From contig OZ076414.1 of the NCBI GenBank assembly GCA_964187785.1, forward strand, positions 51,708,001 to 51,772,000: a stretch of 64,000 nucleotides of DNA. The letters are read 5' to 3'. The notes beneath the pieces were generated by a model. That model was given only the letters and a program-made list of their open reading frames with translations, did not search any database and was not told the origin of the DNA. Shown piece after piece: positions 1 through 52,169 of the stretch. The translations under genes were made by a program, and so were the position numbers. Source of the DNA: Amphiscolops sp. MND2022. Taxonomy: Eukaryota. The stretch's first letter is position 1. Each line of letters begins with the position of its first letter.

Positions 1-364
1 TCATGAGGTCTTTCACTGACAAACAGTCGAACCGAAAAGGGGATTGGACTCCGTGTTGCTGATATTTGCAAACGTCCAACAGGCTGACTGTGTCGGGACC
101 ACACCAGAGGCAAGCAACAATGTCAGGCCTGGTAGATATGGCGCCGACAAGAGAGGAGATCAGGCCCAGTTCAGCAAACGTCTTTCCCTGTGTCAGACCA
201 GTTCGTTTGAGGTACACTCGGACCAGTTGTCCACTGTGCCAGAAGCGGATGTAGAGGTGGTGGAACGCGCCCTCACTTTGGAATTCCAGCGTATAATATC
301 CTGTTGCAACTACTTGATTGCCAATGTCGTCAATTGTTTGGAGAAAGAGATGATGAAACAGCAC
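1..364 (-). CDS. Next exon of the BED/hAT-like gene, open to the window edge
   Basis: 106-nt intron 365-470 (GTAAGT...ttttctttaatAG). The exon reads VLFHHLFLQTIDDIGNQVVATGYYTLEFQSEGAFHHLYIRFWHSGQLVRVYL... with no stop to position 1, resembling the first beta-strands of the hAT catalytic domain. Confidence 0.65.
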   Translation of the reverse strand, partial: MLFHHLFLQTIDDIGNQVVATGYYTLEFQSEGAFHHLYIRFWHSGQLVRVYLKRTGLTQGKTFAELGLISSLVGAISTRPDIVACLWCGPDTVSLLDVCKYQQHGVQSPFRFDCLSVKDLM

Positions 365-470: not shown

Positions 471-2750
471 AGAAAGGCGTTCTTTGCCCCAGTTGAAATC
501 CTTAAACAACGCCTGGTGGTTCACGACAACGCCTATGTCTTTCCACAATCCACGCAGAGCACGGATGTCACCGAAGGTTGGAAGGTAGTGGCCAAGAATT
601 GAAATCTGCACTCTTGCCCTGTTGTCTGAGGAAGATGCCATATGTTGTGCTCCGGCCATAAATTCGTGGTAAAACGGCAACTTTTCACCAATATCCACGA
701 GTTCAGCATCGACGAAATGTTTGAGTTCTTGTTCTAACTGGTACGGCGTAAGAACCTTGCCGTCCCTGCGACGGACCTGGTGTTGAACAGCCTTGGTGTG
801 CGGATCAATGGTTGATAGATGTTCGTATCTCCACCTTTGATCCTTTCTTAGATGTTTGTCTGTGGAATAGTGGCGAAGAATTTCACGCGCTGCTTTGCCA
901 TAAATTGACACGTTGCCCTTGCAGATCTGACAGTAGAACTTGTATTTGTTCCACTTAGGGTCAACGGGTCCAGATGCGAAGGTCCTTGTCCAGGTCATCC
1001 CCTGAAAGTATTCTTCCTTCATTATCTTGCAAGACCTCGTGACTCGTCTGCGTGGGGTACAAGGCTTGCGGGGAATTTTGGGCTTCCGCCCCATGGACTG
1101 TTGGTCCCTTAATGCTTCCTCTTTCAAGGAGGCCAACGTTTGTGCCCCAGGGCTGGCAACCTGTAGGTGTGGCTCAGATGACGATGGGTCCATGTGGCTA
1201 ATATCATACCTCTGTGGAGGCTGGGAAATGGCAATTAAGGAAGGAGGGGTTCGTTCATACCGGTATCCAATACTGTTGGAGTCATTATCACTCCTTAGTG
1301 CTCCACTAGTTGAACTCCCTGCCCTATCAGTTTCTCGATCAGAGAAACCATCAACTTCTGAGGAAGGAGTGACTCTTCTACCAAATGGATTTGCAGGGCC
1401 ATATCTGTTGGTGATATCACTGCTTAGATTCAACCTCCTTGCCCGTTCTATAATGTCTTCCATCATGGAGTAAGACGCCCGGGCACTCTCATCTGCAACC
1501 ACCCTAAGGATTGACTGAACCTGATCAGCATTTAGAACCAGGGTAGCATGACCTCGGGGCAATTCTACTGTAGCCGCCTCTTGAAAGTAGTGGTTAATAA
1601 TAGCCCTACTGGTATTACACAGTCGGTGTACCCCTGAATCCTTAACGTTCTGCCCAAAAGTTGTTTCCTCAGCTTCGGACCCAGAAGAAATGTCAAATGA
1701 GTCACATGGTACTCCTGGTGGAGGGAATAGTGCTTCGGCGAGAGTTGATCTAGCGGCACCAAATGATGTTACATCAGATTGGACTGACGTGTCGTTTCCA
1801 CTAATATGGCCCTCGAGACACTCAGTCTCTGCATTGGACGCACTACTCTCAGTAGCGAAGACTTCATCCTCTTCATTGACCAGATCATGACGAGCCTCCA
1901 CAGGTACATCAGGCGCGGTGAGTGATCTTCCAGGTTCAACAATGATCTTGGGTTTGTTGGGGGAAACTCTGCCTAGACGAAGGCGTGGGTCAATGACGTA
2001 ATTGTGATCAGAGTCCAAGTATGCAACAGTTGGAGGGGCAACAGTAACAAAACTCTCGAAAGTCGGTCTGTTCAGACCAGCATTAAGTGGAAGCGCTTCA
2101 GTACTACTCTCTTTCGCCCCTAGGATGGTGACTTCTTGGACGGGCAAACTATATTCTTCCCCTCCAAGTTCCTCCATTCGTCTGGTAAAATAGGTCTGGC
2201 AACTCTCTTGGGAACTACCTGATTCGGGCAAAGCATCGGCCCCACTAGCCTCATTAGTCTGGCCGGATGTAGGGTCCACAGGGTTGCCAACGACTATTTC
2301 GTCGATTTCCATCAATTGGAGTTTAGTATCAGTCTCCATCGCAGTTTGACTTTCCACAACTTCTTCGCGCTGTACATCTACAATAGGGACTGCCGCGGAA
2401 GTGGATATCACTGGTTCAGGCTCATTCGACCCCACGTCAATCACCAAATTTCCTTGGAGGACATCCTCAATCTCAGGCGATTGTAACTCTGGCAATTCTT
2501 CTTCCAGCTCAGTGGACGTTGGGGGCACTTGCTCATTTTGCTGAGCAGCATCAGGACCATGAAGATCCTGGTTGTCAGCGTTTCCACCAGAGGACGGTTG
2601 GTCGTTATGCTCTTTATCTAAATGAAAAGAGATAAATTTACGCGGTTCACTTCCTGCAAACAAATCCATCTTGCCGCTATTTTGAAAATCTTCCGGAAGT
2701 AAGTTTGAACAAAGTTTCTTCATGAAATTTTTCACGATGGAGGAAGTACT
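471..2750 (-). CDS. Large exon of a spliced BED-type zinc-finger / hAT-transposase-like gene (acidic low-complexity N-terminal region, then Zn finger)
   Basis: 760-aa ORF 453-2735 contains FYCQICKGNVSIYGKAAREILRHYSTDKH (C-x2-C...H-x5-H, the hAT/BED finger pattern). Phase-0 GTAAGT donor at 470 after ...GKERLS. An in-frame TAG acceptor at 2752-2751 gives an exon start at 2750. Confidence 0.7.
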
Positions 2751-3826
2751 CTAGCTTAACCTGAACCCTGATCAAGTTCAGTCTAAGCAATCATTTAAAA
2801 GAACCAACCTGACGTTACTTCCATGACGGGAGAATGGAAATCTCAGTCTTCTAGAGGGTGATTTTGACCTGTAGTCCTTCCACGATACCACTGCTGGTGG
2901 ATGAAGGCTGTTGGGAGAGTCTGGTGGAGAATTGAATGTACCTGACGATTCGTTAGTTGAGGTTGATTCAGATGCTGGGTAAGGTGACTTTGAGGAAAGA
3001 TTCACGAGAACAATAAACAACTCAATTAAAGAGATTCAAGAAATTTGTGAAATTGATGAGTGTAGGATATGAACCTAAAGTTCTGACTAGACTGCTGACA
3101 GACACAAATATGATATTATGTATTCTTGGTTAACTCACTTTACACTTGTGATACAAACGATTACTTCCCTACTCTACATGATATACTTTACTTTACGACC
3201 GAAGATTAGTCTGATAAAAGGACGTCGTGGCTAACTATATCTTTCATTATTAGCTGATCAGAGTACCATAGATACAACCAGGCAATCACTGCTTTTCATG
3301 TTTGGAACCTGCCAGTGACATTCATGAAATTTACTTTATTTCAATTCATTTCATTTCATCATACTCACTCTATTATTTGGCCATATTTCATTTTGCCAAT
3401 CATTCAATTATCACCATAATTATTCATGGCTTATTATTGGTTACTTCAGCGGTGACGCTCAGCGGACCACCGGTCTTTGATGATCTCAATGTTTACTTGT
3501 TGTTATGAATGAATAACACTTTCATTCATCATTACATCTTAATGAAGTGTTAAACAAATAAACTGAGGGCTACTTGAAAGCGAATTGACTAAAGGGGACT
3601 TCCATTCAGGGAAGGAGCTAGAATAAGACTTTCTTAAAGTGGAAAAGTTTATGATGAATTAAGGAAAATGCGCGAAAACTTTCCCCCTCCTGATATTTTC
3701 CCGCGACCCTGAGGATTTGGGGTCGACCAGACGAGAACAATTCATTCGATCAAACCTTGTTAGAGCGATACAGTTGTTTCATATCTTCTCGAGATTGCTA
3801 AGAAAATACTCTTACAAAGTTTCAAT

Positions 3827-4645
3827 ATGGAAATGAATTTGCAGTTCAACTTAGAGGCACTAACTACACCGGCGATAAGTCCTAGTTATTTTTCCTCGGA
3901 TGAGGATATGGACGTTGATATAGAATCAGTTGACGCAACCGGTGAACCGTCAGGTGATAGTGACATCGAGGTCATTGCTTGCTACCGACATGTCCCGGTC
4001 CCCGAACAAGGATCAGTAGCGGGACGACAGATGACAACTGAACTGTCTGATTGTACGGACAGCGAGTTCCCACCTTTTCCTTGGGACGACTTCGAAGACA
4101 TGCTGAGGATGACTGAGGATCAAGTGGACCCGCTAGACAGAGGAGCTGGTCCTAGTGGCGCCGCTCAGACGGGAAGCCCCCCGATTAAACATTGTGGAAG
4201 TCTCACACCCTTAGTAGATACTCCTCTCTCGCCCCCACCACACGAACGCGGTCCGACTTATGGTCCGTGTGGCGATAACTTGCCCCCGCTGCTTGATCAA
4301 CTACTACCACTGAGTTCACATATACAAGGGATCAGCGTAAGAATGGCCTCCCATTGTGGGCAGCCTAATACAGCAACATATGGAGATTGCATAGTGTGTG
4401 GACGAAGCTACGAGCAGATAAAAGAAACTGCAGTTTTAGATTATCTTGAGAATACTACTAATCTGCACGAAACTTATGGCGAACGATTGAAAAGAAGAGC
4501 AGCCTACTTAGCAGGAATGGACCAAGGCACTGTACTTTTCGTCCCTAGGGGAATGTCGCAGGCGGCCGCCTGCGACGGCAACTATTATCAAATACTAGTG
4601 GACGGAGATAACACCAGCCCACCGCCAGGTGTTTTGCCAATTTAG
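3827..4645 (+). CDS. Retrotransposon extra ORF ('ORF3'), 272 aa, acidic/Pro-rich N-terminus plus CxxC domain; function unknown
   Basis: Homologous to 45009-45533: PLVDTPLSPP/PMVDTPMSPP, DCIVCGRSYEQI/DCLICGKSVEQI, RRAAYLAGM/RRMAFLEGM, SQAAACDGN/SQASACDGN. The last ~30 codons lie inside the LTR. Confidence 0.8.
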   Translation: MEMNLQFNLEALTTPAISPSYFSSDEDMDVDIESVDATGEPSGDSDIEVIACYRHVPVPEQGSVAGRQMTTELSDCTDSEFPPFPWDDFEDMLRMTEDQVDPLDRGAGPSGAAQTGSPPIKHCGSLTPLVDTPLSPPPHERGPTYGPCGDNLPPLLDQLLPLSSHIQGISVRMASHCGQPNTATYGDCIVCGRSYEQIKETAVLDYLENTTNLHETYGERLKRRAAYLAGMDQGTVLFVPRGMSQAAACDGNYYQILVDGDNTSPPPGVLPI

Positions 4646-6144
4646 AACATATTAGACTTATGGTCTATTTAGCCACACCCAAAACTAATGTTAGTACGGA
4701 AAACTTGGTTGATATTATGTTTTAGTTGATTAATATTTCATTTTGTGCCTGATTGGAATTTTTGCTAATTGTTTTGTAATTTGCAGTGTAAAATTGATAA
4801 CAGCTGTAAAAATGCAATTAATTTGCTAGCAATCGGTACAAGGAAACGTGTTCAAATACTTATTTGGTCTCGCTCAGCGTACACTCGGTCCAAATAGTAT
4901 TAACCAATCACAGTGCTTCCTTTGTGCTATACTTGTGCTTATTATACTGCCGCCGCATAGACTTTCAGTCCAAAGCGGAATTAATCACGTGACCTATCCA
5001 TGTACTGCAATTTGAGCGCTGGTGATGAAGCCAAATAGACTTGTAGTACAATTTATTAGAATGTTACTATTATCCATTCATGTAGTGTTGCTGTTTAGTT
5101 AGAAGCATGTAAATAGTATATTTAAAGTTAGAGAATTTTCACAATACCAATATTAGTAAACTGTTTGTCTGATTCAATCTCGCTTATCCGCTTCCCTTTG
5201 ATGCTATTTTTATCATATAATCATGATGAAATGATGACGTAATGTCTCTAGACTTGCCCTAAAACCCTATAAAGTGCTATTTTTAGAAGCATGACACGCA
5301 TAATTTTGCGTGTCACCCTGACCAAACTATAAATAGCAGGGACACTGAGGTGCAAGGACAATTCTTTTGATGAACGAGATACAATTCAGTTGATACTACA
5401 TTTCTTAGACGCGATATTGAGAATTACTCAGTTGACGTTCAGTTGATTGGAATAATTCTGTTTGTGACAATATACAATTGACCTTAAAATCACGCAACCT
5501 TTTCAATGCCTTCAACAAGAAAGCAAAAGGCTAAAGAGAGACACTCTAGACAGTTAGACATCATGTCTGATGTTAAAATGTAGATGTCATGTTAGGAAGT
5601 TATTCTGGTAATATTGAAGGAAATGACCACAGTGAGAATGAATTGAATTTGGATTCAGAGTCCGGTAGGCTACAAAGAAACTCTAATGTAACCGGAGAAG
5701 ACTTTAGATCACTACTCACAAACAGTAGAGAAAACAGTGAAATTACCATAGAAACAACTAGATTGATCAATGATGAAATTTCTAGTCAATTGAGCAGGAA
5801 GCTTAATGAGATTAAAACAAGCCTGAATTCTCAGATACAAAACGCAATTTCAGCTGCAATTACTAATACAGTGCTTCCTTCTATTCAAAATACCCTCGAT
5901 ATGCAGGGGGAGCCCAATTTTACCATTGTGGACCAAAGGTCCAATGAGCTACATCAAGGTTTGAAAGCAGCCAGCTCAGCCAGCAAGGACTTAAGGTCTA
6001 GTGAGCGACAACGGAACCCCGGAGCTGAAATAACACAGGAAACCTGGGGTAAACGTTCTAAAACGTCCCCAGTAGAAGGAAATCATAGACACATGTCTAG
6101 AGATAGTTCAGTAGATTCGTATAATAGTGAACAAAATAACGACA
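4554..6144 (+). mobile_element. 3' LTR (~1.59 kb) of a Ty3/gypsy element whose 5' part is outside the window or deleted
   Basis: PPT AGGGGAA directly before TGTCGCAGG at 4554; ends ...AACGACA at 6144. Contains a frameshifted gag 5' region (ATG 5506, MPSTRKQKAK...; ORF 5589-6152). Confidence 0.8.
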
Positions 6145-6429
6145 GTTACTGAATATAACAAAAAATTAGAGGACTATCTGGTCCTAAAAGAGCCTTTTCT
6201 CGCTCTTTTAAAAGTGTATCAGTGCCGAAAAAACTAAAGGATATACCTTTACACTTGTTTCGTAGGTGCTGTAAAAATGAGGAAAACCTGAATGGATGAT
6301 TCTTTAGCCTCTGTTCGAACACTTTTGTTCTTAAGCTAGTTCACATCGGCCGTCCTATCTGTTGTGTCGCATTCGTATATGTAGAAAGTTCTAATAGTCT
6401 GACGATTTTATTTACCTAAATGCACCGAC

Positions 6430-6689
6430 TAAAAACACTGTACATCAGCACTGAAGCAACCTTTAAAAATAAGACCCCTAATTTATCAATATGTGAGCTG
6501 AAATTACAAGACCACCCATGCGAGCTTCCTAGTCTCAACCATCTCTCATAAAAGAACAAATCCCACATTCATGAAAATCTTCAGCTTTAAAATGACAGAA
6601 CGTGTTTTTTTGTGCGAACTGTGTTTGTTTCTACAATATGCTGACAATTTTCAGATGTGCTTATAAACAATGCGCCCACAGAACAATGC
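6430..6689 (-). pseudogene. Degenerate terminal exons of the MFSD11-like gene
   Basis: MFS-like peptides (GIVL.., LKIVSIL*, LKIFMNVGFVLL, FFYERWLRL, LAWVVL, VASVLMYSVF) appear only by switching frames and crossing stops. Confidence 0.45.
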
Positions 6690-9600
6690 CTAAAACATTT
6701 AAAAATAACAATATTTTGAAGACATTAGCCAGAGTTCTTGTTTTTCGAAAACCTTTTGAATCAATCACCAGGCATCGAACTTCGAAAGGTAACAGTAACC
6801 GATTTATACTGAGGATACTTTAACCTAAGAAAGGACTGGCTGTTTAGTGATTTTCAAACGATTTTTTTACCCCGATAGAACAAGCAAAGGAAGAGTGTGC
6901 TGTGTATAGTATGGTAGATCGTAAGTCCTCCCAATGTTGGCATCGATTGGTAACACCAGAAACAGCAAGTAGTAGCCAATCAGACCAGTTGCCATGCACA
7001 GCCACGAGAAAAGCCCGTTGTCTGATTTTGCAGCTGAAACCAAATATTTTATGGACCTATCCATTTGAGCAGTAGTAGAACCGCAATAAACTTTTTACTA
7101 AAAATGTCGAGATCTAGGACAATTCTTTCAGGATCTTGCAAGATAAACTCTGACACTATTTCGCAAATCAGATTCTTATTCTTGAAAGGAGAAGACTTCT
7201 GAAACATGCAAGCATCAATTCAATTCACAGATCAGATATTTATTTCAAAATCTTGAAAGATTCCGTCAAAATAATGCAATAACTTGATTTGCTAGACTGT
7301 TGTAGATATTTCCTGATTTCTCAACTGCGGTATAGCGATGAACTTATTCAACTTTATCCGTTGTAGCGTCTAGACTAATGGCCGGTTGTTTATACAACAT
7401 TGTAACACCGTCTCGCTCGACCGATATTTAGAGGGCATTTGAAATACATGTCTAGAATGCTAGATATTCACTGAGAGTTAAGAAGCTACGGAGAGAGACG
7501 TTTCATAGCAAAGAGATCCGGAATTGAACTGTAAAATTGCAAACTTTATTTTAATCTAGAATAGCGTTAATTTCAGAACAAAACATCAAACAACGAACCG
7601 ACAAGCTTCACTAGTGGAATTTGCAGTCCGCAACTAATTTGTTTTTCCGATTAATCAAGATTTATTTATTGGGTCCAATTTAGTTGAATTGGGTACAATT
7701 GAAAATTAACAAAAAAAGTCAGGTCAAAATCAATTATGAAAAGACGTGTTTTTTATTTTCACTCAGAATAACAGATAGCCCATCCACAAATGTTTTCAAA
7801 TATTTAACATTTTCAGATGAAAAAAGATGTTACTTACAACTGAGCCCTGTATATAAGAATGAGGCCGTGATTTCTCCAATTCCCACACAGAAACCCATCA
7901 CACCCATTATTTCTTTGCTGAAAACAAAAAGGTTATATGGAAGAGGTCCGCTAAAATGTATCTGACTTCTACTACCCTAGGTGAAATTGCTGGAACTTTT
8001 TACATGCTGCAGGCCGGCATTCAGGGTTACTTTTATAAAGCCTAGAAATTTCAGTAAGCTTGAGGTTTCAGGTGGTAAAATTTATAAGATTACACAGCAG
8101 TTTACACTATTGCATTTAAAATTGAAAATAACTTCCTTTTCACTGCCGGCACGATGACGTTTTCACAACAACTCATTTGATGTGATAATAACCACTTCTC
8201 ACTCTTCTCAAATAGCGTGCTAAATATGACGCTAACTTTCAGTTTATTACGTGACTGAAATAATGTTGCATGGAAATGGAGGTAAAACTGATAGCAACAC
8301 AGAAAATTATAACAGTTTCTTGAAGAAACCCGCAAAACTTCCATGCTCGAATTTGGCTCCAAATTTAGGATGCTTCGTTCAAGCAGATTGATGAAAGTCG
8401 AACAGAACAGGAAAATATTTTCGCATAAAAGTTTCTGCGAGAGTTTTAGAAAATCATAATAAAAGTTGCAGACAACTTCAAAGGGCATGCAAATGTTCAA
8501 TCATTTTCAACAAGGGTACGTTTTCAAGCCGTACATTCCTTTCTTGGTTCTGGGAGGGGACGTTCAAGGGACAAAATATCAACTATTTATTTTGATGAAC
8601 GTCAAAGACCGCAAATGAACTTCAGACATGTCTAATTATACTTCAAGCGTTTGATAACACACAAAACTATCGGAAACTTTTTTCCGATGGAATAATCATC
8701 TTTAAAATGGCCTAATATATACCTCTTATCAATGTATAAAGAGTACCCCACTGAAGTTTGTGCCACTCCCATCCAGAATCCACACTCCATGCCCAAGAAG
8801 AGAGCAGTAGAGTAGAGACAGAGAGCTCTCCAGTCTTTGAACGTTCGAACCATTGCCCACATCATTTGTGACCTTTGAAACAATTTTTGAACCATATTTT
8901 GGGCAATTCCGTTTTTTTTTCAAACAGTCGCAAAAACAAATCAACATTCCAGGATTGCCACCCCAGAAGTAAATCAGAAATTTCTTGGTTTATCAGAGCT
9001 GGGGCCCAAACTTTCTTAGTCTGAGTACAACTATGGCCCCAGACTACGAAACTTGAAAATTCTCTGGTATTTGGAACAGTTCATTGAACGAACTTGACAC
9101 GGCATTTTATTGGTATTTTTTGTATTTTGTATGCAAAATGGAATTTCGCCATCCGTATCACCTCATAACTCACCGATCAACTGGAGAATAATATTTAAGG
9201 ATGAAAAAGGGCAATTTCTAGCAAAACCAATATACATGCATAATTGATCAAAAAATTAGTACAACATGTTCCGAGTTACTAGCAATTACCAAAATCACTC
9301 CAGGAAACTACTTCAGGAACATTACAACCACAAAGTATAAACACTTCTACCAATCCAGAAGATCCACTAATTTCTTAGTCTGAGGTCAGGTCTGGGCCAA
9401 AGATTTCGTACCATGATCTTGTCCGAGTTTTCCTTCTGTCAGAGACTAAGAAAATTTTGGAATGACCACCCAAGTTAGGTAGCCTAACTAATCTACACGT
9501 AAAACTACACCGAACTCTAATCTGTTAAATCTGAACTCACACCGACAGTTATTAATTTTTCCGTCAATGATTCCGCCTCATCTTCCGCCAAACTTCTGAA

Positions 9601-12600: not shown

Positions 12601-15600
12601 GGCGTTTGAATTGGAATGTTGCTTCATTTTATTTTTTAATTTTAATAATTATCTGGCCAGAGATTTTGAAGTCTGGGTTCTGGTCTGGGCCAGAGACGTT
12701 GTGAACAATGTCAAGATCTTGCCCCCATCTTGCCCCAGACTAAAAAATCTCAAGTGTGGAAACCTTGTTATTTCAAGAACTTGAAGAGAATCATGTCTTA
12801 CGTCGCAATAAGTACATTTCCAACTGACAAAGAGACGGTGTTTGCAAATCCACCAATAGCACTGAATGCATAAACCACTGGTCTCAGCGGGTAGATCAAC
12901 ATCACACTCTGCAGGGTGTAGCCCACAGACCACAAGACTAAAACACAAAATAATGGGAGAAAAACGTTCTTTTTTCCTGGAACCCAATAAATACAGCCAG
13001 TATCAACGATTCCAAATCGCTGAACAGCTATATAGAACATACATGGTGTCACAGCCTAGAGCTTGTGTTGGGTCCGTAATGCAACGATAAAGGCAAATGA
13101 CCCACCCATCTACAGCCAAATCAGAAAATTCGTCAATTTATGAAACTCATTTTGTATCTATTTATGTATGAATTTTGATTACTAGCGATACTTGAATTTG
13201 TTTGTTATTATTGCTAGCCACAATCGTAAAACAATAATCATTCATAAATAATTTACCAGTTGTTACAAGGCGTTAACTTATTTGACACATAATACCGCTT
13301 AGTACGAACTCTGGTGAAATGAATAAACTATACCCGACTTCTACGAAACATTAACGCATACTGACTTGAGTATTTGAATTGAGTTGCTGTACTAAGTTTG
13401 CAGCATATTGCAGTACGATTTCGCATTTCCAATACTTTTAATCATGACATTTGGAAGTATGATTCATCATAACAATCTGATCACACGTGCTGTAATGTGT
13501 TGGAATAATTACTTGTACTACATATGAGTCATACTACATGCTGTCACGATTTTCTCATTAACGTTGAACAGATCGGTACAGTTAGTGTAATAACCAATCA
13601 AAACGCAGGAAAATATTCGTCATGCAGGAATCTATTTACAGAAGTGATGTAACTTACAAACCTATTTTTATACCAAATTGGGTACTATTTTTAGTGATTA
13701 CATCATTATGATGTAAGCATGACATTCCAAAAATTGGCTGTCAAGTTGCTAACTTTAGCCCAAATAAAAAAGAATAATCAATCAACAAAAAACTTCAGAC
13801 CGATCAAACTTTTTTTTCATTCCTTTCAACCTTTTGTTCTAACTTTGATAATCTGACATTATGTACAATTTCTTCAACTTTATTTCAACCCTGTTTTACT
13901 TTAATTTTAATTGAAATTCTTCTCTCCAAAACAGCATTTTAACTTGACTAAAATGGGTCTAAATAAGAGAAATAGAAGATCTAGATGAGGACAATCACCC
14001 TCGCTTGAGAACGAGTTGAGAACATCCGAAATAGAAACATCACAAGGTAATGAAACTGTTATCGAAACTTTAAGTAACTTTGAAAATGTTCATTCAGTAA
14101 GGGACGATGGAGCAGTATTAGATAGCGGAACACAGAATGAAAATGAAATGCAAATCTGGACCCAAAGAATATCTGACAAGACGAATAAAGAAGTAGCAAA
14201 CTTAAGGAAAGAGATGGACGAAAAACTAGAGAAAGTGCTGAGAGAGATGAAAAATAGCAGAAGAACACAATCCGTACCAAGCAGGAGACATCAAGAGCGA
14301 AACACCCCCAGAGCGGAAACCTCAAATTATATAGATAACGAAGGCGGTAAAGAAAACGCATCTGAGCCAAAAAATCAGGAAAATGAAATACGAGATAGTC
14401 ATTTCAGACCATCTAATATGAATGAACTTAGAACGCCAATGCAACCTCTGAGTATGCGAAACATTGATTTAAATGACTCTGTGGTCATAAATGAGGACCG
14501 CACAGGAGAGGATTATCACACATGGTTTTTTGAATGGTCAGCCCGGGATTCAGTTCAAACGTGCACTTTCGATTGAAAGTGATAACTTCAATATTTCGAT
14601 TGTGATTCTCTATCTGAAAACATATTTTTGAGGTCCGAACAACTGCTCATCGATCAAAAATTTCGGGTTGGTAAACTTTCTTCATTTAATTCTCAGAATT
14701 TCAATTATTAACTTTTATTAAGGTCATCAGGAGACCTACTAGCTTAAGCAACTCAACTTTTCCATTTATGTACAAGCAATTTTTTGTTCTGATTGCTCAT
14801 AGTTCTTGAGTTGCTTAAGTTATTATATCTATTATCCTAGTATACAAGTCTGATGACCATAACAAGGCGCCCGCTTAGCACCGGGATATTTTCCGCCGTT
14901 TTCGCCTTCACTAACTAAGCCATAGCTATTTTGGGAGGGGGGAATAGGATCTAAAAAATAAGATCTTAAATTTAGTAGTTTTAGATCTTGTTCGCTTTAC
15001 ATCTTATTCCCGTCCTGAAATTTTAGGTCTCATTCCCATAAGATCTTATTCCTTTTTTTGACTTTATATCTTATTCCCCACTCATAAGATATTTAGTTAC
15101 TTGACTATTTTAGCTACTAGCTATTCAAGTAACTAAGTGAGGTCGGGAGGAGATTTGGCAGAATTTGGAAAAAACGCATCACAGATCATGATTTTCCTCC
15201 CCCAAATTTATTTGTGGGGTCGGAAAATAACAAAAGTTGATAATTGAACTGATGTGAATTATATGAGGAAAGTTTAACAATCCGAAACTTTCGAGCAATG
15301 AACGGAGTTGTTCGGACCTCAAAAATTATGAGTCATCAGAAGAAAAATTGCTTGTACTTGAATGGAAAAGTTAAGTTGTTTGAAAACATATCAGTTGTAA
15401 ACTAAATGCCCTGACAACTTATAAGTGCATGCTTGATATTTCATCGCATGTTTCATTTCGAGGACTGAAAATTTATTCTTTAAGGTTGGCCATTCTTGTG
15501 ATCAGTATTATAAAAGCTGTTTGCAAATCAAAAGTTACATGCATCAATCAATGTCTTGTCTTATAAGTGTTTGAAAGGCAGTAGTCGAAGAATCTGTTCA

Positions 15601-35786: not shown

Positions 35787-37524
35787 TGTCGCAGGCTGCC
35801 GCCTGTGACGGTACTTTAATAACGACGACAGCGACAAGCCAGGAGACATTGCCCGGAACTTTGCCTACATTTTGAGCAAGTATATTTTGTATTTCAAAAC
35901 TTACTTTTAGTAACGATATTTGCTCTCAAACCATTACATTTTCCAATACGTTGCAGTTTATATTAGTCTGTTAATATTACGGTTTGGGATAGGCCAAATC
36001 AGTTTGCTGATGTATTTACTGTAGAATAGAATTAAAATGCAAGATTGATTTGATGCAATAACAAACAACAAGCAAGTTAATCGCGAGAAGGAAACGTGTT
36101 CAAGTGCGGAAACGTCCTTTCTCGGCGACGTAACTTGCTGTACATTGTCAGCCAATCATATCATTCCTTTTGAATTATTGGCGCTTTTATTATATAATGG
36201 CCGAATAAGGCCTTTTGACTTAACACAGTGCACGCGCTGCTGGTACTCATGTCAAATGGCCAGTTCCGGCCAATTCATGCATTATAGTATTTTGTTGTCT
36301 AATTAAGCAAGTAATTACTCGAAGCTAACTTTCCATGATTTGAAACTAAATTAAAGCATTTGTAACGCTTTAATGTCTGTACAATCTCAACCTAAAAAGA
36401 TGGACGATTAAGGCCATCTTACCATGTCTCTTTGAAAGTTGTGTATTTTATGATTTTGGGCCTATTCCGGCTCTAACATGAAAGTGCGTTCTCATATATA
36501 TTTGGATTGTATTGAAGCAATATACACGTGATGATGCATTCCATTCTCAATAACTCGTGTCGGCACGTGCCTTCACTACACTCCGCTGTAACGAATGTGA
36601 GCGGAGGCATTTGTTGACGCTTTGATATGATGCCTTAGTTAATAACTGTTTTGATACTTCTGTCTTGATCAAATGACCTTTGAATGCCATTCCCTAAATG
36701 TCCCCCAATAATATGCAGTTGTCGGGACATTCTCTGTGAAGTAATAAATCACATGATCCCATTTTTCTTGACTAGTTATGTGAAGTATGTGATTGTCATC
36801 CCCTCATGAGTATATATACTGATACTCGACCTGAGTGAGACACAATTCATTTGAAACGCTACTAGTGAAGATTGAATTACAAATGGCTTCGCTGTTATTT
36901 TCCGAATTGAATAATTCATTGTTAATTCGGAACTGTTTCTATGCCTACTACTAGAAAACAGAAAAAGGCAAGAAAGTCGAGAGGACTCGAAATGCTGTCA
37001 GATATCGAGAACATAGACATTATGTTAGGTGAAAATCACTTTAATGCAAGAGAGAGAAGGTAGTTTGAACAGTAACTTGCCTAGGAGGTCTAGAAGCTTC
37101 GCAAGCAATGAATCTGAGAATGAAAATGGAAATGTAGGTAGAAATCAGAGAAATGATCACTCTAGAACAAATACCGAATATGATCAAAATTCAGTTACAA
37201 CCAACTCTAGTGCTGAGATTAACAGGTTGTCAGGTGAATTGAGTTCCCGCATTTCACGGGAAATGGACGAGATGATCAATTCTGTGAGTGTTCAGATACA
37301 GAGGGCCATAAGCGACGCGATAAGCACTCAGGTAATTCCTCAAATCCAAAACGTTATTATGGACGGATCGGGACACGGGACCAGAAAAGGAAGGGACGTT
37401 CCGGCTGAGAGACCGGAACTGCCTTCCGAAGTTCAGCGAAACTTAAATGCAAAAAACAACTTAAGAAATGAACAAGATGGGAATCAGTCAGACAATGATT
37501 TCCCTGGTTTAAATGTTCATGACA
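35787..37524 (+). mobile_element. Ty3/gypsy solo LTR (1738 bp)
   Basis: Starts TGTCGCAGGCTGCCGCCTGTGACGG (same start as the LTR at 4554), ends TTCATGACA, perfect TSD CTTCT. Internal gag 5' region (ATG 36941, MPTTRKQKKARKSR..., frameshifted into ORF 37029-37652). Confidence 0.92.
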
Positions 37525-38106: not shown

Positions 38107-39009
38107 ATGAAGTTTAAAATTCTGGTGCGAGTTCTTTTATCGTTCTGTATCCTGGAGAGGTGTTTTCAACTCTCTACTTTACAAACTCCTCCAACCCTCA
38201 GATGGATACCCTTCCTAGATTTTGTGGACGGGAAGCGTTTCTCGGGCCGCGTTATAAACATTATCAAATCACCTTCCAGTAGATATTGTGGGATGAGATG
38301 CACAAGACACCCTGAATGTCGTTCTTTCAACATGTGCTCCCACCTCTACTGCGATCTGAACTTTCATGATATATATTCTGCCCCCAATGGCACTGATCTG
38401 CTGCAAGACTCCCCGAAGTGTGCTTACCATGGCATGCAGCGCGAGGATCATCCAATCTGCTCCGAGAAGGGCGAGCAGAAACAAATGCAGGTAAACAACC
38501 TCGGGGTGTGTCAAATTGGGCTGAAAAGAGTGGATAGAGAATGGACAGAATGGGAAAAGGAGACAAAAAAAGACCCATTTTCGTACCTTGAATTCATGGC
38601 AAGGAAAATGATAATAGATGTAGCTCACGGTGGAATTGAAGGCGATGACAATCGAGAGAGGCTCTATTCTAAGAAATGGTTTTATGAAAGATCATGTCCT
38701 TTCCATAAATGCCGAAGTCAATGTGTTTCGAAGGGCGGGAGTTTGATTGGTTATGATCTTGCAAGTGCAATCTCTGGTCAAATTTGCGATTTTGACACGG
38801 ATGGTTCCTGGATAGATGTGTGCACGGGGGATCAAGGCGTCTGGAGGACCGGCGAAAGTATTCTCAACGAGGTGGTGTGGAGTTTCTTGGACGATGTTCC
38901 CGAAGACGAGCAATGCTGTGTTTTCAAATCCTGCACTCCAGGGGGATTTAGTTGTATTAGAATAAGTGAAGGAATAACTCATGCCATCTGTATTTTGCCC
39001 CTTGCTTGA
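38107..39009 (+). CDS. Secreted cysteine-rich protein: signal peptide, PAN/apple-like domain, C-type-lectin-like C-terminal domain; single exon, 300 aa
   Basis: Hydrophobic N-terminus. CGMRCTRHPECRSFNMCSHLYCDLN matches PAN Cys spacing. C-terminal CRSQCVSKGGSL...SWID...C...C is lectin-like. Intact ORF. Confidence 0.75.
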   Translation: MKFKILVRVLLSFCILERCFQLSTLQTPPTLRWIPFLDFVDGKRFSGRVINIIKSPSSRYCGMRCTRHPECRSFNMCSHLYCDLNFHDIYSAPNGTDLLQDSPKCAYHGMQREDHPICSEKGEQKQMQVNNLGVCQIGLKRVDREWTEWEKETKKDPFSYLEFMARKMIIDVAHGGIEGDDNRERLYSKKWFYERSCPFHKCRSQCVSKGGSLIGYDLASAISGQICDFDTDGSWIDVCTGDQGVWRTGESILNEVVWSFLDDVPEDEQCCVFKSCTPGGFSCIRISEGITHAICILPLA

Positions 39010-42400: not shown

Positions 42401-45008
42401 ACTCGCTTGACGCTGAGAAGGAAAAACTGACGGCTGTACTGAGAATAATGATTGATTTAATCAATTAACTTTAATGTCGATTGTTTATCATAACAACAAC
42501 GTCAATAGGTTGATAATTTTGTTACGAACATTATCAATCGTAATAAACATGCGCTAGACGTAACCAAGAAGTCTCGTATCAAATTCAACGAAAATAACAG
42601 ATCACATTCATGTCTAGCTATAGTCAACATTTTATATAAAAAATGGCAACAGTTAACATTTGTATTGGGTTCAACAGCATTTAAAAAGTTATATCAATTT
42701 CAGCGGAACATGGCAGGCTCTTTTGTGGGGAAACTGATTATATATTCCTTTGTACTACAACGGACGACATATGGCGGGCTACGCCAATTATACATTGAGA
42801 TTGAACAGCATCATTTTTAAAATCGAAGCAACACTTTTATAAAACACTCACAGTATAGGACAGTTTATACCCCGATGGTATTCAACAGTGATTGAAAATC
42901 GTACGTGCAGTTGTATCACATAAACATGCTAATACACGGTGACGTTCAGTTTGAAATCTGTTCCTCTAAATCTAAAACACTTATCCTCTAAATCAAGCCT
43001 GCGAAATTGGTCTTAAAACATAATTCCGAGAGGTTTCATTCTTAGTCGGAGGAGAACCAACGTAAAGTATGATACCCAACATTTCAAAAACAATTGAAAA
43101 TGAATTGACGTGAATTTAAACCGGTTCTGACTGGTACTTCTTTTCTAAAACTAGTAAAATCATAAAATTTAATAAAATTCAATGAAAGCGCCTAGTTCTT
43201 TAAATTTGTAACGTAGTGTTGACATATATTTGAAGCCAAGCTTGGCTAACTGTCGCTGTTGACTGATTTCCAGCTAGCTGCCAAGTTTACAACGTATTGT
43301 TGACGTAAAAGTGGAAAACTAGCCTTACCTCGACCGTGATAAGTCGTTAAAAGTTTTTTCTCTGAACTCGTTTACGCGGTTGTGACGTCACGTATATAGT
43401 TATTTCAACCGGCGTTGCTGTAATTGTTTAACGTCCTAAATTGCACCAATTGTTTTTCAGAGTTGCGATCCAGCTGCCCTCTCTCAGAATGGCGTATTGC
43501 TTTAAGGCTTTTTTCTTTCGTGTTATTCCACTTTTAGATTTAGCTATGATCAATTCCAAAATGTAAAATCCATTTAAGTGAAATAATTGTGAGAACTCTG
43601 ACCTAGGGTCTCTCTTAGATCTCCTACAGATCGTGAATCCTTCTTTGCAATTTTTATTTTAGGCCCAGATACGCTTTCCCTGTTATCCTGGCTATTCGGG
43701 GACGAACTGGCCTCAGTGTCCCTGTGCCCAGCAGAGGACATGGAACTAGCAATGTTTTGGATTTCTGGAATGACTCTTTCATTTATAGCTGTTGTGACGG
43801 CTTTATTTATTTGATTATGCATCATTGACATCATAGAATCCATTTCTTGAGACAATCTGAGATTAAACTCATTCGAGAAGGTTTCAAAGGAGTGTCTGAT
43901 TTCATTTTGTCTCAGTACATCATTTTCATGCTGATAATCTCTATATTCATTCTCTAGGTACGTGTGTGTATCAGCGTCCCCATGGACCGATGACTGATCT
44001 ATAGCTTCAGCTAATTCTCTTTCTATGGGATTATTATTGTTATTTCCCAACATCACATCTAAGTTTTCAAAGTCGGACATCATGTCCATTTCCCTAGATT
44101 TCCTAGCTTTCGCTTTCTGGCGTCTAGTAGAAGGCATAAGAGATTATTGCAAGAGGTAAGAATTTAAATTAAGTTCTCAGGCTTGCAAATTCAGTGTGAG
44201 ATTACTCAGTATCAAGTAACAAGCATGTAGTAAGGTCAAACTTCTTGTGTCCCGGGACTAAATGTCTCCGCTATATATATATATAACAAACTACATGACA
44301 CGCATAATATTGATCATCATATTCTAATAATAGCCTTAAGGGCTTCTAAAAATAGCAACAGCTCTAAATATAGTAACGGTTAACTAGTGACATCATCATA
44401 CATCAAAAGGCCTTTCCCGACAGTTATTGTGGCGGGAAGACTGAAGGTCCATGCGGACAAGCAACGACATACATGTATGAACGCAATAAACTACATGTAT
44501 TTCAACATTTTCTAATTGCATGAAATATATCAAAGGCATTGATGGCGTACTATTAAGCACAGATTACATGTCCTCTAAGGACTAATAATTCACTAAATAA
44601 GATAATAAAGCACCGGTTATTATGCAATTCATAACACTTTCCAGCAAGCGCTTTTGATTTGGTAAACGGCCTCAGCGTCCAATCGACATGAGTGGACCGA
44701 GATATTATTGACTGGCGGCATGTGGCCGTTCAGTCCCTTTAATCTAGCAGCATAATACAGCGCCGAATAAAGAAAGTACTGCACTGTGATTGGTTAGCGA
44801 GTTAATTGGACTGGTGGACCAAGGCGACAGGCGAGAAAACATTTGAACGCGTTTCCTCTACCTGTACGCCTTGGTGTCCAATTTACTAGCAATGTACAAA
44901 TTAGCGCCGGTATTACGTAATACTAAATCATCATTACATGATATTTTATATTCAAAATAACTAAATTACATGACTTTTGAGATACAAATGCAGTTCATTT
45001 AAAAAGTT

Positions 45009-45585
45009 TCAATTTAAATGGATCGTGTTGGGTAAAGCTTTTTGATAGTTGTGGCAAATAGAGTACAAGTTGCCATCACAGGCGGACGCCTGGGACACTC
45101 CCCCTGGGATTAGCATGAAACAGCCCACCTTCATTCCTTCTAAGAACGCCATCCTCCTGGCATTGAATTGTTCTGGGGACTCCCCTCGGACAGCCGTCTT
45201 GTGCATGTAGTCAATCACTGCTTCATCTTGAATCTGTTCCACAGATTTTCCGCAGATGAGGCAGTCTGTGCAGCCCGTGATGTAGGGATTGTCGTCGCTA
45301 GGGCCTTTAAAGTGTATTCCACTTGGGCATTGTTGTTTATTACTAGTAGAGGGTTCTACTATTGCCCTCCAGTCTCCTGTAGGGTATTTATCCACAGCAG
45401 GGGGCGACATTGGTGTGTCCACCATTGGAATTAATTGGCTGCAAATATTAATCGGATGATCATTTTTGAGCCTTGGGTCCCTTGCGACTGGCCCTCTCCC
45501 CATCCCTAGATCAAAGTATCCAGCATCGAACATTGGTCCTGGGATGTATGAGAGCCTGGGGGTCCCGGGACGATCTTCTCCCTGT
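45009..45585 (-). CDS. 5'-truncated ORF3 homolog ending inside the 3' LTR
   Basis: See alignment to 3827-4645. Crosses the PPT (AGGGGGAG, 45105-45098) as PGGV and stops at 45009, inside the LTR. Confidence 0.8.
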
Positions 45586-48500
45586 TGGCTTTCAGAAGGC
45601 TGCTGATATATTGAACAGCATCTTCTTGATTTTCATTGAGGAGGTGCCATGTGGACACTGGGTCTATTGGCCTGACGTGTTTCATCTGCTCCGGCGTCAT
45701 TACTGAGAAGTTGGCTATATGCATCCCCTTTTTGAGTTTGTAGGGTTGGTCAGTAAAATTATTAATGTGTATCCTCGTGGTCCCTTCATCGAGTGTAATT
45801 ATGGCAGCGCAGAAGGTTATATCATTTTCTTCATTTAGATGTTCACTGGGTTGTAAAATCCCAGTGACAGCATTTTCTGCGTAAATTCTGGATTGAATGG
45901 AGATGATTGTACGGTCATTTGGCGGAATTGTGACATCCTCAGGGTTGAGGATGGGCTCCATGACGTTCGAGTATTTGTGGTCAGCCGTTTTCAATTGCAT
46001 CGAGAAAAAGGGGAAGTTGAGTATGCCTTGGCGCATATCTAGGACTGTGTGATTTCTTTGTAAGAACATAAGTCCAATTATGGGGCTGGATAGTTTTTCC
46101 ATCACAATGAAGATCTCATGGAACTCAATGTCCCCTACTTCAAATTTCAATTCCACTGTGCTTTTGGGTGTCTCTAGGTCACCATTTGCGACCATGATTT
46201 GGAAAGATGGGGCAGGTCCCTCTTTGACTATGGATTGAGGCGCTAATAGCCGTATTTTCCTGAGGTCTGCTTCTGGGATTGCGCTGGAGTGGGCCCCAAT
46301 GTCTATGAGTCCATCTAACGTTAGTTCTCCAAAGTCCATTGGAAAATATAACATCCGCCTTTCAATTTTAAGTCCAAGATTAGTGGAAAGAGGAACGTAT
46401 GATGGTTCACCTTGTTGTTCCACTAAAATATGCAAGAAGGCTGTTTCATCCAGGAGGCTATTGGGGTCTTGGTGATCTTCTTGCTCTGGAGTTTCCCCTA
46501 TTTCTCCTGAGATTGCTTCAGAATTTGGTTGCCAAAGTTCAATGAGGGCCCTAGAGAGTTTGGTGTCCTCTATTTGGGGATCGTCCTCATCGTCTGTTGG
46601 GGGATAGTCTTCGTTCCGGAATTGGAGATTTCGTTTGTCATATAATTCATCATCCCAATACGGATCTTTGCCATACTCAGCGTCAATGTATTGAGGGTGG
46701 TAGTCTTCGACCAATGGTAAGGGACGGAATTGAGTCTCAAAGTCTTTAGTGTAGTCAGTTTCGTAAAATCGGTCTGGGCGATCGTTGTGTACTTGTTTAT
46801 AGGTTTTGATGCAAGCTTTCTCCATCTGTTGCTGCCAGACGACGGATGGGGTGCCTGTGGTATCCTTTATATAGTGTCGGAATGTTATAATTGGAGGGTC
46901 TGAAATGACATACTGTCGAACCGACATATAGTCATGTATTTGGAGTCGTGGCAAAATTAGTTTTTTGAATCTGTCTTTTTTGATATTGGATTGGCTTGAG
47001 CTGGTGGTCGTCGTGTCACCTGGTGTTTTAGGTTTGCTTTCTGAAGTTGAGGCGTTTGGGTCTTTTTGCTCCGCTTGTAACCTCTTGGGACGCAGGTGGG
47101 CACCTGCGCCTTGCCAACATTTTTCAGTTGAATGGTTCTTTTTCCCGCATGTGTCACAAGGTTGGTAAGTAGGACGCTGTGGTTTTTTGCCATCTTTTTC
47201 CTCCATTTCTTTCTTTTTCTTGAGTTTAGGACAGCTTTTGTAAAAATGTCCGGTTGCCTTACAATAGGAGCATTGAGCGTCTTTGTTGGTATTGATGCCG
47301 GTAGAGAGCAAGTTGCTTTGGTTTGTTGACGCCGAGGCCATAGTGGCCATTGGCAAGTCATCGGACTCTTCTAATGCATTAAGTTCTAGCTCTCTTTCAA
47401 GATGAGCGACTATTTCTTCATACGTCCCGTTCTCCAACCGGGCCATTTTGACAGATCGTTTTAATTTTGGTGGAAGTTTCGCATATGACAAACTGTCAAT
47501 CATGCTTTTTGCATTTTCACCAAAAGCTTTTTCAGCTCCTTGGTTCAGTTCTTCCAAGAAGTCCGGCAATTTCATGGTACTTGGGTCGAACGTCAGTCGG
47601 TGCCATTTGTGTTTTGCCGTCGCTTGGGATTCCGGTTTAACGTACTTTCTTCGGAATATGACCAGTACGTCTTCCAGAGTCTGACGGTTGATGGAGTTTA
47701 TGTTCCTAAATGTCTGTAATGCCCCTTTTCGTAGCAATGAATGGAAATGGTTGATTTTCATCTGTTCTGTCATTGCAGGTTGCATTTTGATCATCGTGTG
47801 GAACAAGTCCTCAAAAAGCTCAAATTTTTCGCTTTTTCCGTCAAACGTCATTGGAGTTGTTTGGACAGGTCTGATGGTCATAGTTTGTGGTTTATTTTGC
47901 AAATTGACTAATACATCAGCCAATCTGTTGAACGGGTCCTGCTGTGGCTCTGGGACCTCGGGGTCTGGGGCTGGCAGAGTCGCGTCTAGGGAGACATTGT
48001 GGTTGGAATGTTGCCGCAGTATCTTCGGATGCGTGGGTTCGTTTCCCACTCCTGTCACCATGTGAGAACTCTGACCTAGGGTCTCTCTTAGATCTCCTAC
48101 AGATCGTGAATCCTTCTTTGCAATTTTTATTTTAGGCCCAGATACGCTTTCCCTGTTATCCTGGCTATTCGGGGACGAACTGGCCTCAGTGTCCCTGTGC
48201 CCAGCAGAGGACATGGAACTAGCAATGTTTTGGATTTCTGGAATGACTCTTTCATTTATAGCTGTTGTGACGGCTTTATTTATTTGATTATGCATCATTG
48301 ACATCATAGAATCCATTTCTTGAGACAATCTGAGATTAAACTCATTCGAGAAGGTTTCAAAGGAGTGTCTGATTTCATTTTGTCTCAGTACATCATTTTC
48401 ATGCTGATAATCTCTATATTCATTCTCTAGGTACGTGTGTGTATCAGCGTCCCCATGGACCGATGACTGATCTATAGCTTCAGCTAATTCTCTTTCTATG

Positions 48501-48610
48501 GGATTATTATTGTTATTTCCCAACATCACATCTAAGTTTTCAAAGTCGGACATCATGTCCATTTCCCTAGATTTCCTAGCTTTCGCTTTCTGGCGTCTAG
48601 TAGAAGGCAT
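45506..48610 (-). CDS. Gag-protease fusion ORF (1034 aa), truncated by an internal deletion
   Basis: Capsid-like region (FDGKSEKFELFEDLF...), two CCHC knuckles (CSYCKATGHFYKSC, CDTCGKKNHSTEKC), aspartic protease motif LIDIGA. The reading frame changes character at ~45585. Confidence 0.92.
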   Translation of the reverse strand: MPSTRRQKAKARKSREMDMMSDFENLDVMLGNNNNNPIERELAEAIDQSSVHGDADTHTYLENEYRDYQHENDVLRQNEIRHSFETFSNEFNLRLSQEMDSMMSMMHNQINKAVTTAINERVIPEIQNIASSMSSAGHRDTEASSSPNSQDNRESVSGPKIKIAKKDSRSVGDLRETLGQSSHMVTGVGNEPTHPKILRQHSNHNVSLDATLPAPDPEVPEPQQDPFNRLADVLVNLQNKPQTMTIRPVQTTPMTFDGKSEKFELFEDLFHTMIKMQPAMTEQMKINHFHSLLRKGALQTFRNINSINRQTLEDVLVIFRRKYVKPESQATAKHKWHRLTFDPSTMKLPDFLEELNQGAEKAFGENAKSMIDSLSYAKLPPKLKRSVKMARLENGTYEEIVAHLERELELNALEESDDLPMATMASASTNQSNLLSTGINTNKDAQCSYCKATGHFYKSCPKLKKKKEMEEKDGKKPQRPTYQPCDTCGKKNHSTEKCWQGAGAHLRPKRLQAEQKDPNASTSESKPKTPGDTTTTSSSQSNIKKDRFKKLILPRLQIHDYMSVRQYVISDPPIITFRHYIKDTTGTPSVVWQQQMEKACIKTYKQVHNDRPDRFYETDYTKDFETQFRPLPLVEDYHPQYIDAEYGKDPYWDDELYDKRNLQFRNEDYPPTDDEDDPQIEDTKLSRALIELWQPNSEAISGEIGETPEQEDHQDPNSLLDETAFLHILVEQQGEPSYVPLSTNLGLKIERRMLYFPMDFGELTLDGLIDIGAHSSAIPEADLRKIRLLAPQSIVKEGPAPSFQIMVANGDLETPKSTVELKFEVGDIEFHEIFIVMEKLSSPIIGLMFLQRNHTVLDMRQGILNFPFFSMQLKTADHKYSNVMEPILNPEDVTIPPNDRTIISIQSRIYAENAVTGILQPSEHLNEENDITFCAAIITLDEGTTRIHINNFTDQPYKLKKGMHIANFSVMTPEQMKHVRPIDPVSTWHLLNENQEDAVQYISSLLKANREKIVPGPPGSHTSQDQCSMLDTLI
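48044..48060 (-). promoter_or_regulatory. Primer-binding site, tRNA-Leu type
   Basis: TGGTGACAGGAGTGGGA immediately after the LTR-terminal CA; one mismatch to the canonical tRNA-Leu(CAG) PBS TGGTGTCAGGAGTGGGA as I recall it. Confidence 0.85.
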
Positions 48611-49620
48611 AAGAGATTATTGCAAGAGGTAAGAATTTAAATTAAGTTCTCAGGCTTGCAAATTCAGTGTGAGATTACTCAGTATCAAGTAACAAGCATG
48701 TAGTAAGGTCAAACTTCTTGTGTCCCGGGACTAAATGTCTCCGCTATATATATATAACAAACTACATGACACGCATAATATTGATCATCATATTCTAATA
48801 ATAGCCTTAAGGGCTTCTAAAAATAGCAACAGCTCTAAATATAGTAACGGTTAACTAGTGACATCATCATACATCAAAAGGCCTTTCCCGACAGTTATTG
48901 TGGCGGGAAGACTGAAGGTCCATGTGGACAAGCAACGACATACATGTATGAACGCAATAAACTACATGTATTTCAACATTTTCTAATTGCATGAAATATA
49001 TCAAAGGCATTGATGGCGTACTATTAAGCACAGATTACATGTCCTCTAAGGACTAATAATTCACTAAATAAGATAATAAAGCACCGGTTATTATGCAATT
49101 CATAACACTTTCCAGCAAGCGCTTTTGATTTGGTAAACGGCCTCAGCGTCCAATCGACATGAGTGGACCGAGATATTATTGACTGGCGGCATGTGGCCGT
49201 TCAGTCCCTTTAATCTAGCAGCATAATACAGCGCCGAATAAAGAAAGTACTGCACTGTGATTGGTTAGCGAGTTAATTGGACTGGTGGACCAAGGCGACA
49301 GGCGAGAAAACATTTGAACGCGTTTCCTCTACCTGTACGCCTTGGTGTCCAATTTACTAGCAATGTACAAATTAGCGCCGGTATTACGTAATACTAAATC
49401 ATCATTACATGATATTTTATATTCAAAATAACTAAATTACATGACTTTTGAGATACAAATGCAGTTCATTTAAAAAGTTTCAATTTAAATGGATCGTGTT
49501 GGGTAAAGCTTTTTGATAGTTGTGGCAAATAGAGTACAAGTTGCCATCACAGGCGGACGCCTGGGACAATAATGGTCTTAGTTCCGGCGTAGCTTGAACG
49601 TCTTGACAAAAATGTGTGGA

Positions 49621-52160: not shown

Positions 52161-52169
52161 AGCATTCAG

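Follow-up and report, generated by a model that had tools for sequence, protein, structure and literature searches.

Near the 3' end of a retrotransposon in Amphiscolops sp. MND2022 lies an open reading frame that could not be assigned to a known family. What does this frame, which we call ORF3, encode, and what might its product do for the element that carries it? The initial annotation was made from the letters of a 64,000-nucleotide stretch of the genome (the window). It described ORF3 as a conserved protein in the env position that might be a metal-binding accessory protein such as a silencing antagonist. Sequence comparisons identify ORF3 as an accessory gene, conserved but not of the envelope type, in a Ty3/gypsy lineage that numbers hundreds of copies.

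ORF3 and the elements that carry it

The frame is open on the forward strand from an ATG at 3827 to a TAG at 4645 of the window, as originally reported, but the start at 3827 did not hold up: the protein probably begins at 3794, and the probable full coding region is 3794..4645 (+ strand; 283 amino acids from an AUU, with the first AUG at 3827). The initial annotation also paired this frame with a diverged copy at 45009-45585, and the two do encode homologous proteins (34% identity, profile E = 6e-70), with the motifs D-C-x2-C-G, RRxA[FY]xxGM, and SQxxACDG in both. In the 1.07-Gb genome, the window protein had at least 142 matches (of 7412 candidates, 142 were scored), the protein at 45 kb at least 150, and the ORF3 of a third family at least 148. 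Further ORF3 families were found in the same genome, and the frames are open in most matches. Among 50%-identity representatives there were 605 profile matches to ORF3 (the best 150 of the 605 were listed). For two relatives, P0064 and P0065, the Amphiscolops genome contains no close match, and two metagenome contigs (L168 and L169) are distant, which suggests that the family is also present in other host species.

We compared 23 elements, each as a pair of 10-kb stretches, and obtained a common layout: 5' LTR, PBS, gag, pol, an antisense gene, a spacer, ORF3, and 3' LTR. The antisense coding sequence takes up about 4.3 kb and is followed by a spacer of about 1.1 kb before ORF3, which is on the sense strand. 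As expected for LTR elements, the LTRs have TG..CA ends, the PBS (TGGTGACAGGAG) is immediately 3' of the 5' LTR, and there are 5-bp target-site duplications. The pol protein has the domain order of Ty3/gypsy elements, with protease, reverse transcriptase, RNase H, and integrase at 227-314, 625-790, 860-986, and 1179-1350 (Pfam positions on L118). A dUTPase-like region in pol is weak (E = 0.0015, under the cut-off). Many 5' and 3' LTRs are 99-100% identical, and therefore the lineage has recently been active.

LTR alignments were obtained for 21 of the 23 element pairs; 18 of them start at a junction within ORF3, 29-30 codons before its stop, and 3 are partial. In the first element of the window, the 3' LTR (4554..6144, + strand, 1591 bp) likewise begins inside the frame, and its U3 encodes the last 29-30 codons, including C260-D-G, and the stop. 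This bears out the proposal that the C-terminus of ORF3 is encoded in U3, and the same boundary recurs in the paired LTRs of most full-length elements. This 3' LTR is 98.2% identical to the 5' LTR (L167 5711-7299), with target duplication GTTAC; the element's pol is split into several frames. A short purine tract at 4547..4553 (+ strand), the putative PPT, lies inside the ORF3 frame, and synonymous sites are suppressed there. (In a large young family, L121, L123, L125, and L135, the 3' LTR is not preceded by a purine tract, near 7400-7415; the sequence there is pyrimidine-rich and codes for F-I-A-P-A-V of ORF3.)

At the other end of the LTR, gag opens within it (near 5506 on the + strand in the 3' LTR of the first element) and continues through the LTR end and the PBS (window 5506-6144, 48061-48610, 36941-37524, and 13954-14520). 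Solo LTRs hold about 190 gag codons and the 30-codon ORF3 tail, and each of them starts with this protein tail. Two such LTRs, which had been reported to open with SQxxACxG, are true solo LTRs with 5-bp duplications. One is at 35787..37524 (+ strand, profile E = 1e-7, duplication CTTCT). The other, at 13047..14520 (+ strand, duplication CATGG), belongs to a distant family; its more complete copies contain the antisense gene as well as a diverged ORF3, with the ORF3 core upstream of the 3' LTR (best E = 2.5e-15). In members of this family (L147-L149, L153, L158, and L165) we also saw units of ORF3 core plus LTR that recur in short tandem series at intervals of about 1.3-1.6 kb. By eye, U3 has a conserved GGAAACGYGTTCAA and CCAAT boxes across divergent families (window 4790-4920 and equivalents).

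The term "env position" fits in that ORF3 is a sense frame just before the 3' LTR, but ORF3 does not directly follow pol: in intact elements, about 5.5 kb with a spliced antisense gene intervenes. In the second element of the window, a 5'-truncated ORF3 of a second family (45009..45585, - strand) adjoins gag-pro because about 9.4 kb has been deleted, from the protease to the middle of ORF3 and including its first ~90 codons. The junction (45581-45591) is at an 11-nt microhomology. This element has its 3' LTR at 43588..45097 (- strand, target duplication ATTAT) and its 5' LTR at 48061..49568 (- strand), which has the same ORF3 tail and gag start and is directly followed by the PBS.

The first exon of the antisense gene (471..2669, - strand) encodes a low-complexity region and then a BED-like zinc finger, and has a GT donor at 470. 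The second exon (1..364, - strand; profile E = 1e-50) extends off the window into L031. When 37 stretches were tested by profile, 35 had this gene before ORF3, the most distant family among them. The two exceptions are L094, in which a truncated first antisense exon persists, and L131, which another element interrupts. The gene has at least four GT-AG introns at conserved positions (the L043 copy is at 4449-8782), is under purifying selection (omega 0.046-0.075), and has conserved ETS-like ACTTCCGG motifs before its ATG. The BED-like finger gave a weak C2H2 match, under the cut-off, and by eye the protein resembles a catalytically dead hAT transposase. PDB sequence searches with the antisense protein were blank, and its last exon folds as an all-helical structure without a match.

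We also recorded other features of the window and of related loci. Tandem arrays are at 19637-23050 and 16287-16531, and their repeat periods are about 585 and 32 nt. An intronless 300-amino-acid ORF at 38107-39009 (+ strand), whose N-terminus is hydrophobic and in which a PAN domain is weakly matched (E = 1.5e-4), is probably a secreted host protein, and a direct repeat pair at 25816-32919, spaced 6.8 kb apart and enclosing internal repeats, is possibly another element. By eye, 51900-55200 (+ strand) contains decayed BEL/Pao-like pol fragments. A different gypsy element (L132 660-2414, - strand) has a 585-amino-acid ORF right after pol that, also by eye, is unrelated to ORF3 or to the antisense gene.

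Translation start and putative internal promoter

The coding signature of ORF3 starts 11 codons upstream of the first AUG and is absent further upstream. This N-terminal extension (3794..3826, + strand) begins at a conserved ATT/ATA and encodes a basic amphipathic segment (IAKK...); I-A-K-[KR] and hydrophobic residues are common to all 16 subfamily representatives. The underlying codons vary, with all four Ala codons in use, Leu as TTA and CTN, and Arg as AGA and CGA. Among 34 elements without a Met in the extension codons, divergence from the ATT on is 0.23, 0.15, and 0.45 at codon positions 1, 2, and 3, versus 0.61, 0.54, and 0.53 in the 30 nt preceding it. All 68 copies have a purine at -3 and a G at +4 of the ATT/ATA, which makes for a strong initiation context. 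Four representatives have an in-frame stop five codons upstream of it, and one (L043) has an in-frame ATG upstream. Together, these observations suggest that translation of ORF3 probably begins at the AUU/AUA.

A splice-acceptor or trans-splice start was considered and rejected. We found no conserved acceptor AG before the coding start in the 16 representatives; the AGs before the AUU are not phase-conserved, and in 2 of the 16 (L101 and L125) they are absent from the open interval.

Further upstream, at 3696..3705 (+ strand), is an E2F-like site that may be part of an internal ORF3 promoter, and an initiator-like TCATTC at 3742..3747 (+ strand), about 52 nt before the AUU, is the putative transcription start. 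The E2F-like site is found at -96 to -115 in 12 of the 16 representatives (the other 4 fail the strict pattern) and in none of 17 other 50-nt windows, and TCATTC is found in 12 of 16 versus 0.5 in shuffles; the representatives share ancestry and the counts are not independent, though neighbouring silent sites are saturated. The E2F, initiator, and start-context assignments, and the SIM assignment described below, rest on short consensuses that we take to be the usual ones. The metagenome contig L168, which is less than 50% identical and did not contribute to the definition of the motif, retains the IAKK extension and, by eye, has GCGGGAAA on the reverse strand; L169 has neither a clear IAKK nor an E2F match. 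Expression of ORF3 thus likely depends on an internal E2F-type promoter and on initiation at a non-AUG codon, a combination that annotation pipelines would overlook.

The spacer between the divergent genes also has AT-rich TTCATT repeats (window 3330-3530), at a similar position in most families, which are possibly an RNA or chromatin element.

Selection and protein features

Of 87 loci with a detectable ORF3, we aligned 68 intact distinct sequences. In pairwise comparisons, sequences of the same subfamily had an omega of 0.17 (379 pairs) and representatives that are 80-93% alike had 0.11 (4 pairs), beyond which synonymous sites are saturated; restricting the set to intact copies lowers these values somewhat. 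A codon model with 27 copies gave an omega of 0.105 (lnL -10398.5, versus -11116.6 at omega = 1), while integrase gave 0.025. ORF3 is under purifying selection, and a ratio near 1, which would have undercut the idea of a functional protein, was not what we found.

Synonymous change is suppressed across about 14 codons at the PPT and the start of the LTR, and this changes how the shared tail is read. The initial annotation took SQAAA to be conserved despite divergent DNA. Instead, the third positions of SQAAA are also nearly fixed (divergence 0.17), so that its conservation mostly reflects a DNA-level constraint at the LTR end. In the following CDG codons, divergence is 0, 0, and 0.56 at positions 1, 2, and 3, and since only third positions vary, CDG is a protein constraint.

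The window protein is acidic (41 D/E and 16 K/R), and its homologues are 260-300 amino acids long. It has neither a signal peptide nor the C-terminal transmembrane anchor of an Env: the maximum 19-residue hydropathy is 0.62, and just 2 of 66 homologues reach 1.6 (1.66 and 1.61). This agrees with the earlier description. A search for a confident match to a known Env or accessory family in Pfam, PHROGs, and PDB and with Foldseek, BFVD, and VIA-align found none. Pfam had nothing for the window protein and no family common to more than one of 28 members; the best PHROGs match had E = 0.096; a 66-row profile against PDB sequences gave two zinc-finger rows (E = 0.41 and 1.4) that were driven by CxxCG; and a search of the ESM Atlas gave no usable match.

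C199 (24 of 24 sequences), C202 (23 of 24), C260 (23 of 23), H176 (19 of 24), and C134 (18 of 21) are conserved, as are E226, R234-R235, and G241. C199, C202, and C260, with H176 or C134, would provide the four Cys/His ligands expected of a zinc domain. Taken with an omega of 0.105 and the lack of a transmembrane segment, these residues uphold the proposal of a conserved, selected, non-Env accessory protein that is probably metal-binding. An AlphaFold2 model from 66 rows (pTM 0.27) is confident only at residues 200-245 (about 46 residues), which correspond to a folded core of C199-x2-C202 and then a helix-loop-helix hairpin (4388..4528, + strand). Residues 247-260, including C260, have pLDDT below 50, and C134 and H176 are also in low-confidence parts; the chain is predicted to be mostly disordered with a single helical hairpin. 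Fold searches gave a best E of 5.6 with Foldseek against PDB, a best E of 0.11 against BFVD, and a best VIA-align Z of 4.7 (rmsd 2.8 over 46 residues, generic hairpins), but with a low-confidence model these do not prove the absence of a known fold.

C134 is followed by a [DE]-[ST]-P-x-S-P-P motif (together 4193..4237, + strand) with putative proline-directed phosphosites, and 43 of the 49 full-length homologues have [DE][ST]PxSP. The acidic, disordered N-terminal half (pLDDT below 50) contains DSDIEVI (3956..3976, + strand), which was proposed to resemble a SUMO-interacting motif (SIM). It has the V/I/L core with acidic or serine flanks, in a disordered region, that we take to define a SIM. 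A generic SIM pattern is found in 39 of 49 N-termini (10 are without it), versus 13 in shuffles (maximum 24). The claim for DSDIEVI stands in the window's branch only: divergent families carry a different SIM-like motif, a hydrophobic core and SSDE. With patterns drawn after inspecting the data, the two forms are nearly exclusive (23 proteins each, and 2 with both), which looks like motif replacement rather than loss. The motif's enrichment and turnover support the SIM idea, and SUMO binding is predicted.

Possible functions of ORF3

We tentatively favor the possibility that ORF3 is a cell-cycle-expressed nuclear adaptor, stabilised by zinc and binding SUMO, that would make silencing of the element by the host less tight. 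A subgenomic RNA would run from the initiator near 3742 to the 3' LTR in E2F-active (stem or germ) cells, and low, leaky translation from the AUU would yield the protein, perhaps along with a shorter AUG form. Zinc would be held by C199, C202, C260, and H176 or C134; the SIM and the S/T-P sites would make binding depend on SUMO and on phosphorylation; and ORF3 would compete with, or remove, SUMO-recruited silencing factors at copies of the element. In Drosophila, SUMO- and SIM-dependent recruitment of SetDB1/Wde is described as silencing transposons (10.1101/533091), and therefore a SIM-bearing element protein could compete there. Transposon-encoded anti-silencing proteins do exist: like the role proposed for ORF3, VANC of the Arabidopsis VANDAL elements is an accessory protein that counters silencing (PMC6719617). 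By the account given there, though, VANC acts sequence-specifically on the DNA methylation of a DNA transposon, and the role of ORF3 would be reached without any similarity that we could show.

There are arguments against an anti-silencing role. The known mechanisms, as described in PMC6719617, are narrow or family-specific, and ORF3 shows no DNA-binding domain that would give specificity. A SIM can also recruit silencing and not just oppose it. An arms race should show positive selection, and the single whole-gene omega is low. On balance, the silencing antagonist suggested at the outset is a reasonable lead.

Alternatively, ORF3 might be a nuclear factor like Rev or CERV that exports or protects the ~14-15 kb genomic RNA and is switched by proline-directed phosphorylation, which we consider unlikely. 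Rev is laid out as a helix-loop-helix hairpin, and ORF3 has a predicted hairpin of this kind, a conserved S-P motif, and conserved cysteines. For animal LTR elements, our literature search turned up one characterised accessory protein other than Env, CERV of the C. elegans element Cer1; it is a lineage-restricted nuclear protein with conserved cysteines, and export of the genomic RNA requires its invariant S-P phosphosite and a cysteine loop (PMC10309623). But the second helix of ORF3 is near neutral (2-6 K/R versus 1-5 D/E) and the protein is acidic, where an arginine-rich RNA-binding helix would be expected. By its description, CERV has 517 amino acids, is made from a spliced mRNA with exons in common with gag, and has H, M, and G domains, the last G-protein-like (PMC10309623), whereas ORF3, with 260-300 mostly disordered amino acids, could not accommodate a G domain and is encoded at the 3' end, downstream of promoter-like motifs of its own. 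Furthermore, a sense-strand splicing conflict is not evident, since the element has its introns on the other strand.

The E2F-like motif is also what one would expect if ORF3 were a cell-cycle modulator that docks cyclin/CDK or pocket proteins and keeps stem cells favourable to transposition, an idea that we regard as rather improbable. Small viral cell-cycle proteins include Vpr, E7, and E1A. ORF3 has 4.9 S/T-P dipeptides per protein versus 3.5 in shuffles (maximum 4.3), an acidic SSDEE tract, a disordered N-terminus with a Cys-rich C-terminal domain, and, in one family, a p21/p107-like R-x-L-F-G (R-x-L-F in others). Full CDK sites, on the other hand, are not enriched (0.59 versus 0.48, shuffle maximum 0.71), and we saw no LxCxE by eye in the alignment. 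A strict N-terminal RxL is present in only 7 of 16 representatives, and cyclin docking is a weak candidate for the role of the extension.

About as improbable is a two-part regulator formed by ORF3 and the antisense DNA-binding-like protein, possibly for self-restraint through SUMO-dependent repression of the element's own copies. The genes point away from each other across a gap of about 1.1 kb and are found together in the 35 of 37 elements mentioned above, and the BED-like finger could give sequence specificity. But the genes have separate promoter-like motifs and swap freely among subfamilies: in three pairs of elements ORF3 is 96-97% identical but the antisense exons are 65-71% identical (as in L041/L039 and L037/L035, with 96-97% and 66-71%), and in one pair the reverse holds. 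For instance, L091 has an ORF3 that is 96% like that of L047 and a last antisense exon that is 97% like that of L043. This reassortment argues against a lock-and-key pair and is easier to reconcile with a target in the host than with a cognate partner.

It seems very improbable that ORF3 is packaged in particles and helps the integration complex to enter the nucleus or to select its target site: it has a basic N-terminal helix, and retroviral accessory proteins that act in nuclear import offer a general precedent (PMC7264820), but a separate promoter and a weak AUU start suggest low abundance, and we found no Gag-binding or DNA-binding feature in ORF3. We can practically dismiss a degenerate Env, or a frame that stays open solely through constraints on the DNA around the PPT and LTR end, since the sense orientation just before the 3' LTR and the synonymous suppression over ~14 codons are outweighed by the lack of a signal peptide, transmembrane segment, or Env family or fold match in the searches above, and by a low omega in all other segments, where synonymous sites are saturated between families.

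How does ORF3 compare with other extra genes of LTR elements? Several retroviral genes overlap U3 through the PPT, namely HIV nef, MMTV sag, and foamy virus bet/bel2. ORF3 coding also runs through the PPT into U3, but only about 30 codons overlap, and we found no sequence or fold similarity to these genes (Pfam and BFVD). Extra ORFs between pol and the 3' LTR have been described in plant Ty3/gypsy elements, as the sense aORF-3S and the antisense aORF-3R of Grande, RIRE2, and Retand (PMC7264820, PMC11963269). Here, in contrast, the host is an animal, there are two divergent genes, and the antisense one is spliced; the sense gene has no transmembrane segment, overlaps U3, and is likely transcribed from a separate promoter and translated from a non-AUG codon. 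In Pfam there was no match to TRP28/Transposase_28. The Vesta and Juno elements of bdelloids, as described in PMC5408684, are also an invertebrate LTR lineage with a non-Env third ORF, and they bear a dUTPase (weak here). Their ORF3s, however, are GDSL esterases or DEDDy exonucleases (PMC5408684), and our ORF3 has no Pfam match to GDSL/SGNH or DEDDy families and no enzyme-sized folded domain (about 46 confident residues). A literature search of titles and the beginnings of abstracts, outside of Repbase, subscription journals, and supplements, found no description of the ORF3 family, which Repbase-type entries could already list. Within this scope, the protein family, its U3 overlap, the likely AUU start, the internal E2F-type promoter, and the back-to-back pairing with a spliced antisense gene are apparently undescribed.

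A bolder and less probable version of the SUMO-binding adaptor, which we regard as speculative, would make the two genes a virus-like cassette: an antisense gene derived from a disarmed transposase, and an E2F-driven, AUU-initiated SUMO binder with a new fold that disarms SUMO-dependent silencing in stem cells. If this is true, an animal retrotransposon would encode a protein that suppresses silencing, whereas transposon protein counter-defences are best known from plants (VANC), and this could account for the lineage's hundreds of young copies across many families. In any case, the size of the family, its young intact copies, its divergent subfamilies, and its clear motifs make the existence of SUMO-pathway or cell-cycle effectors in animal retrotransposons, like those of viruses, directly testable.
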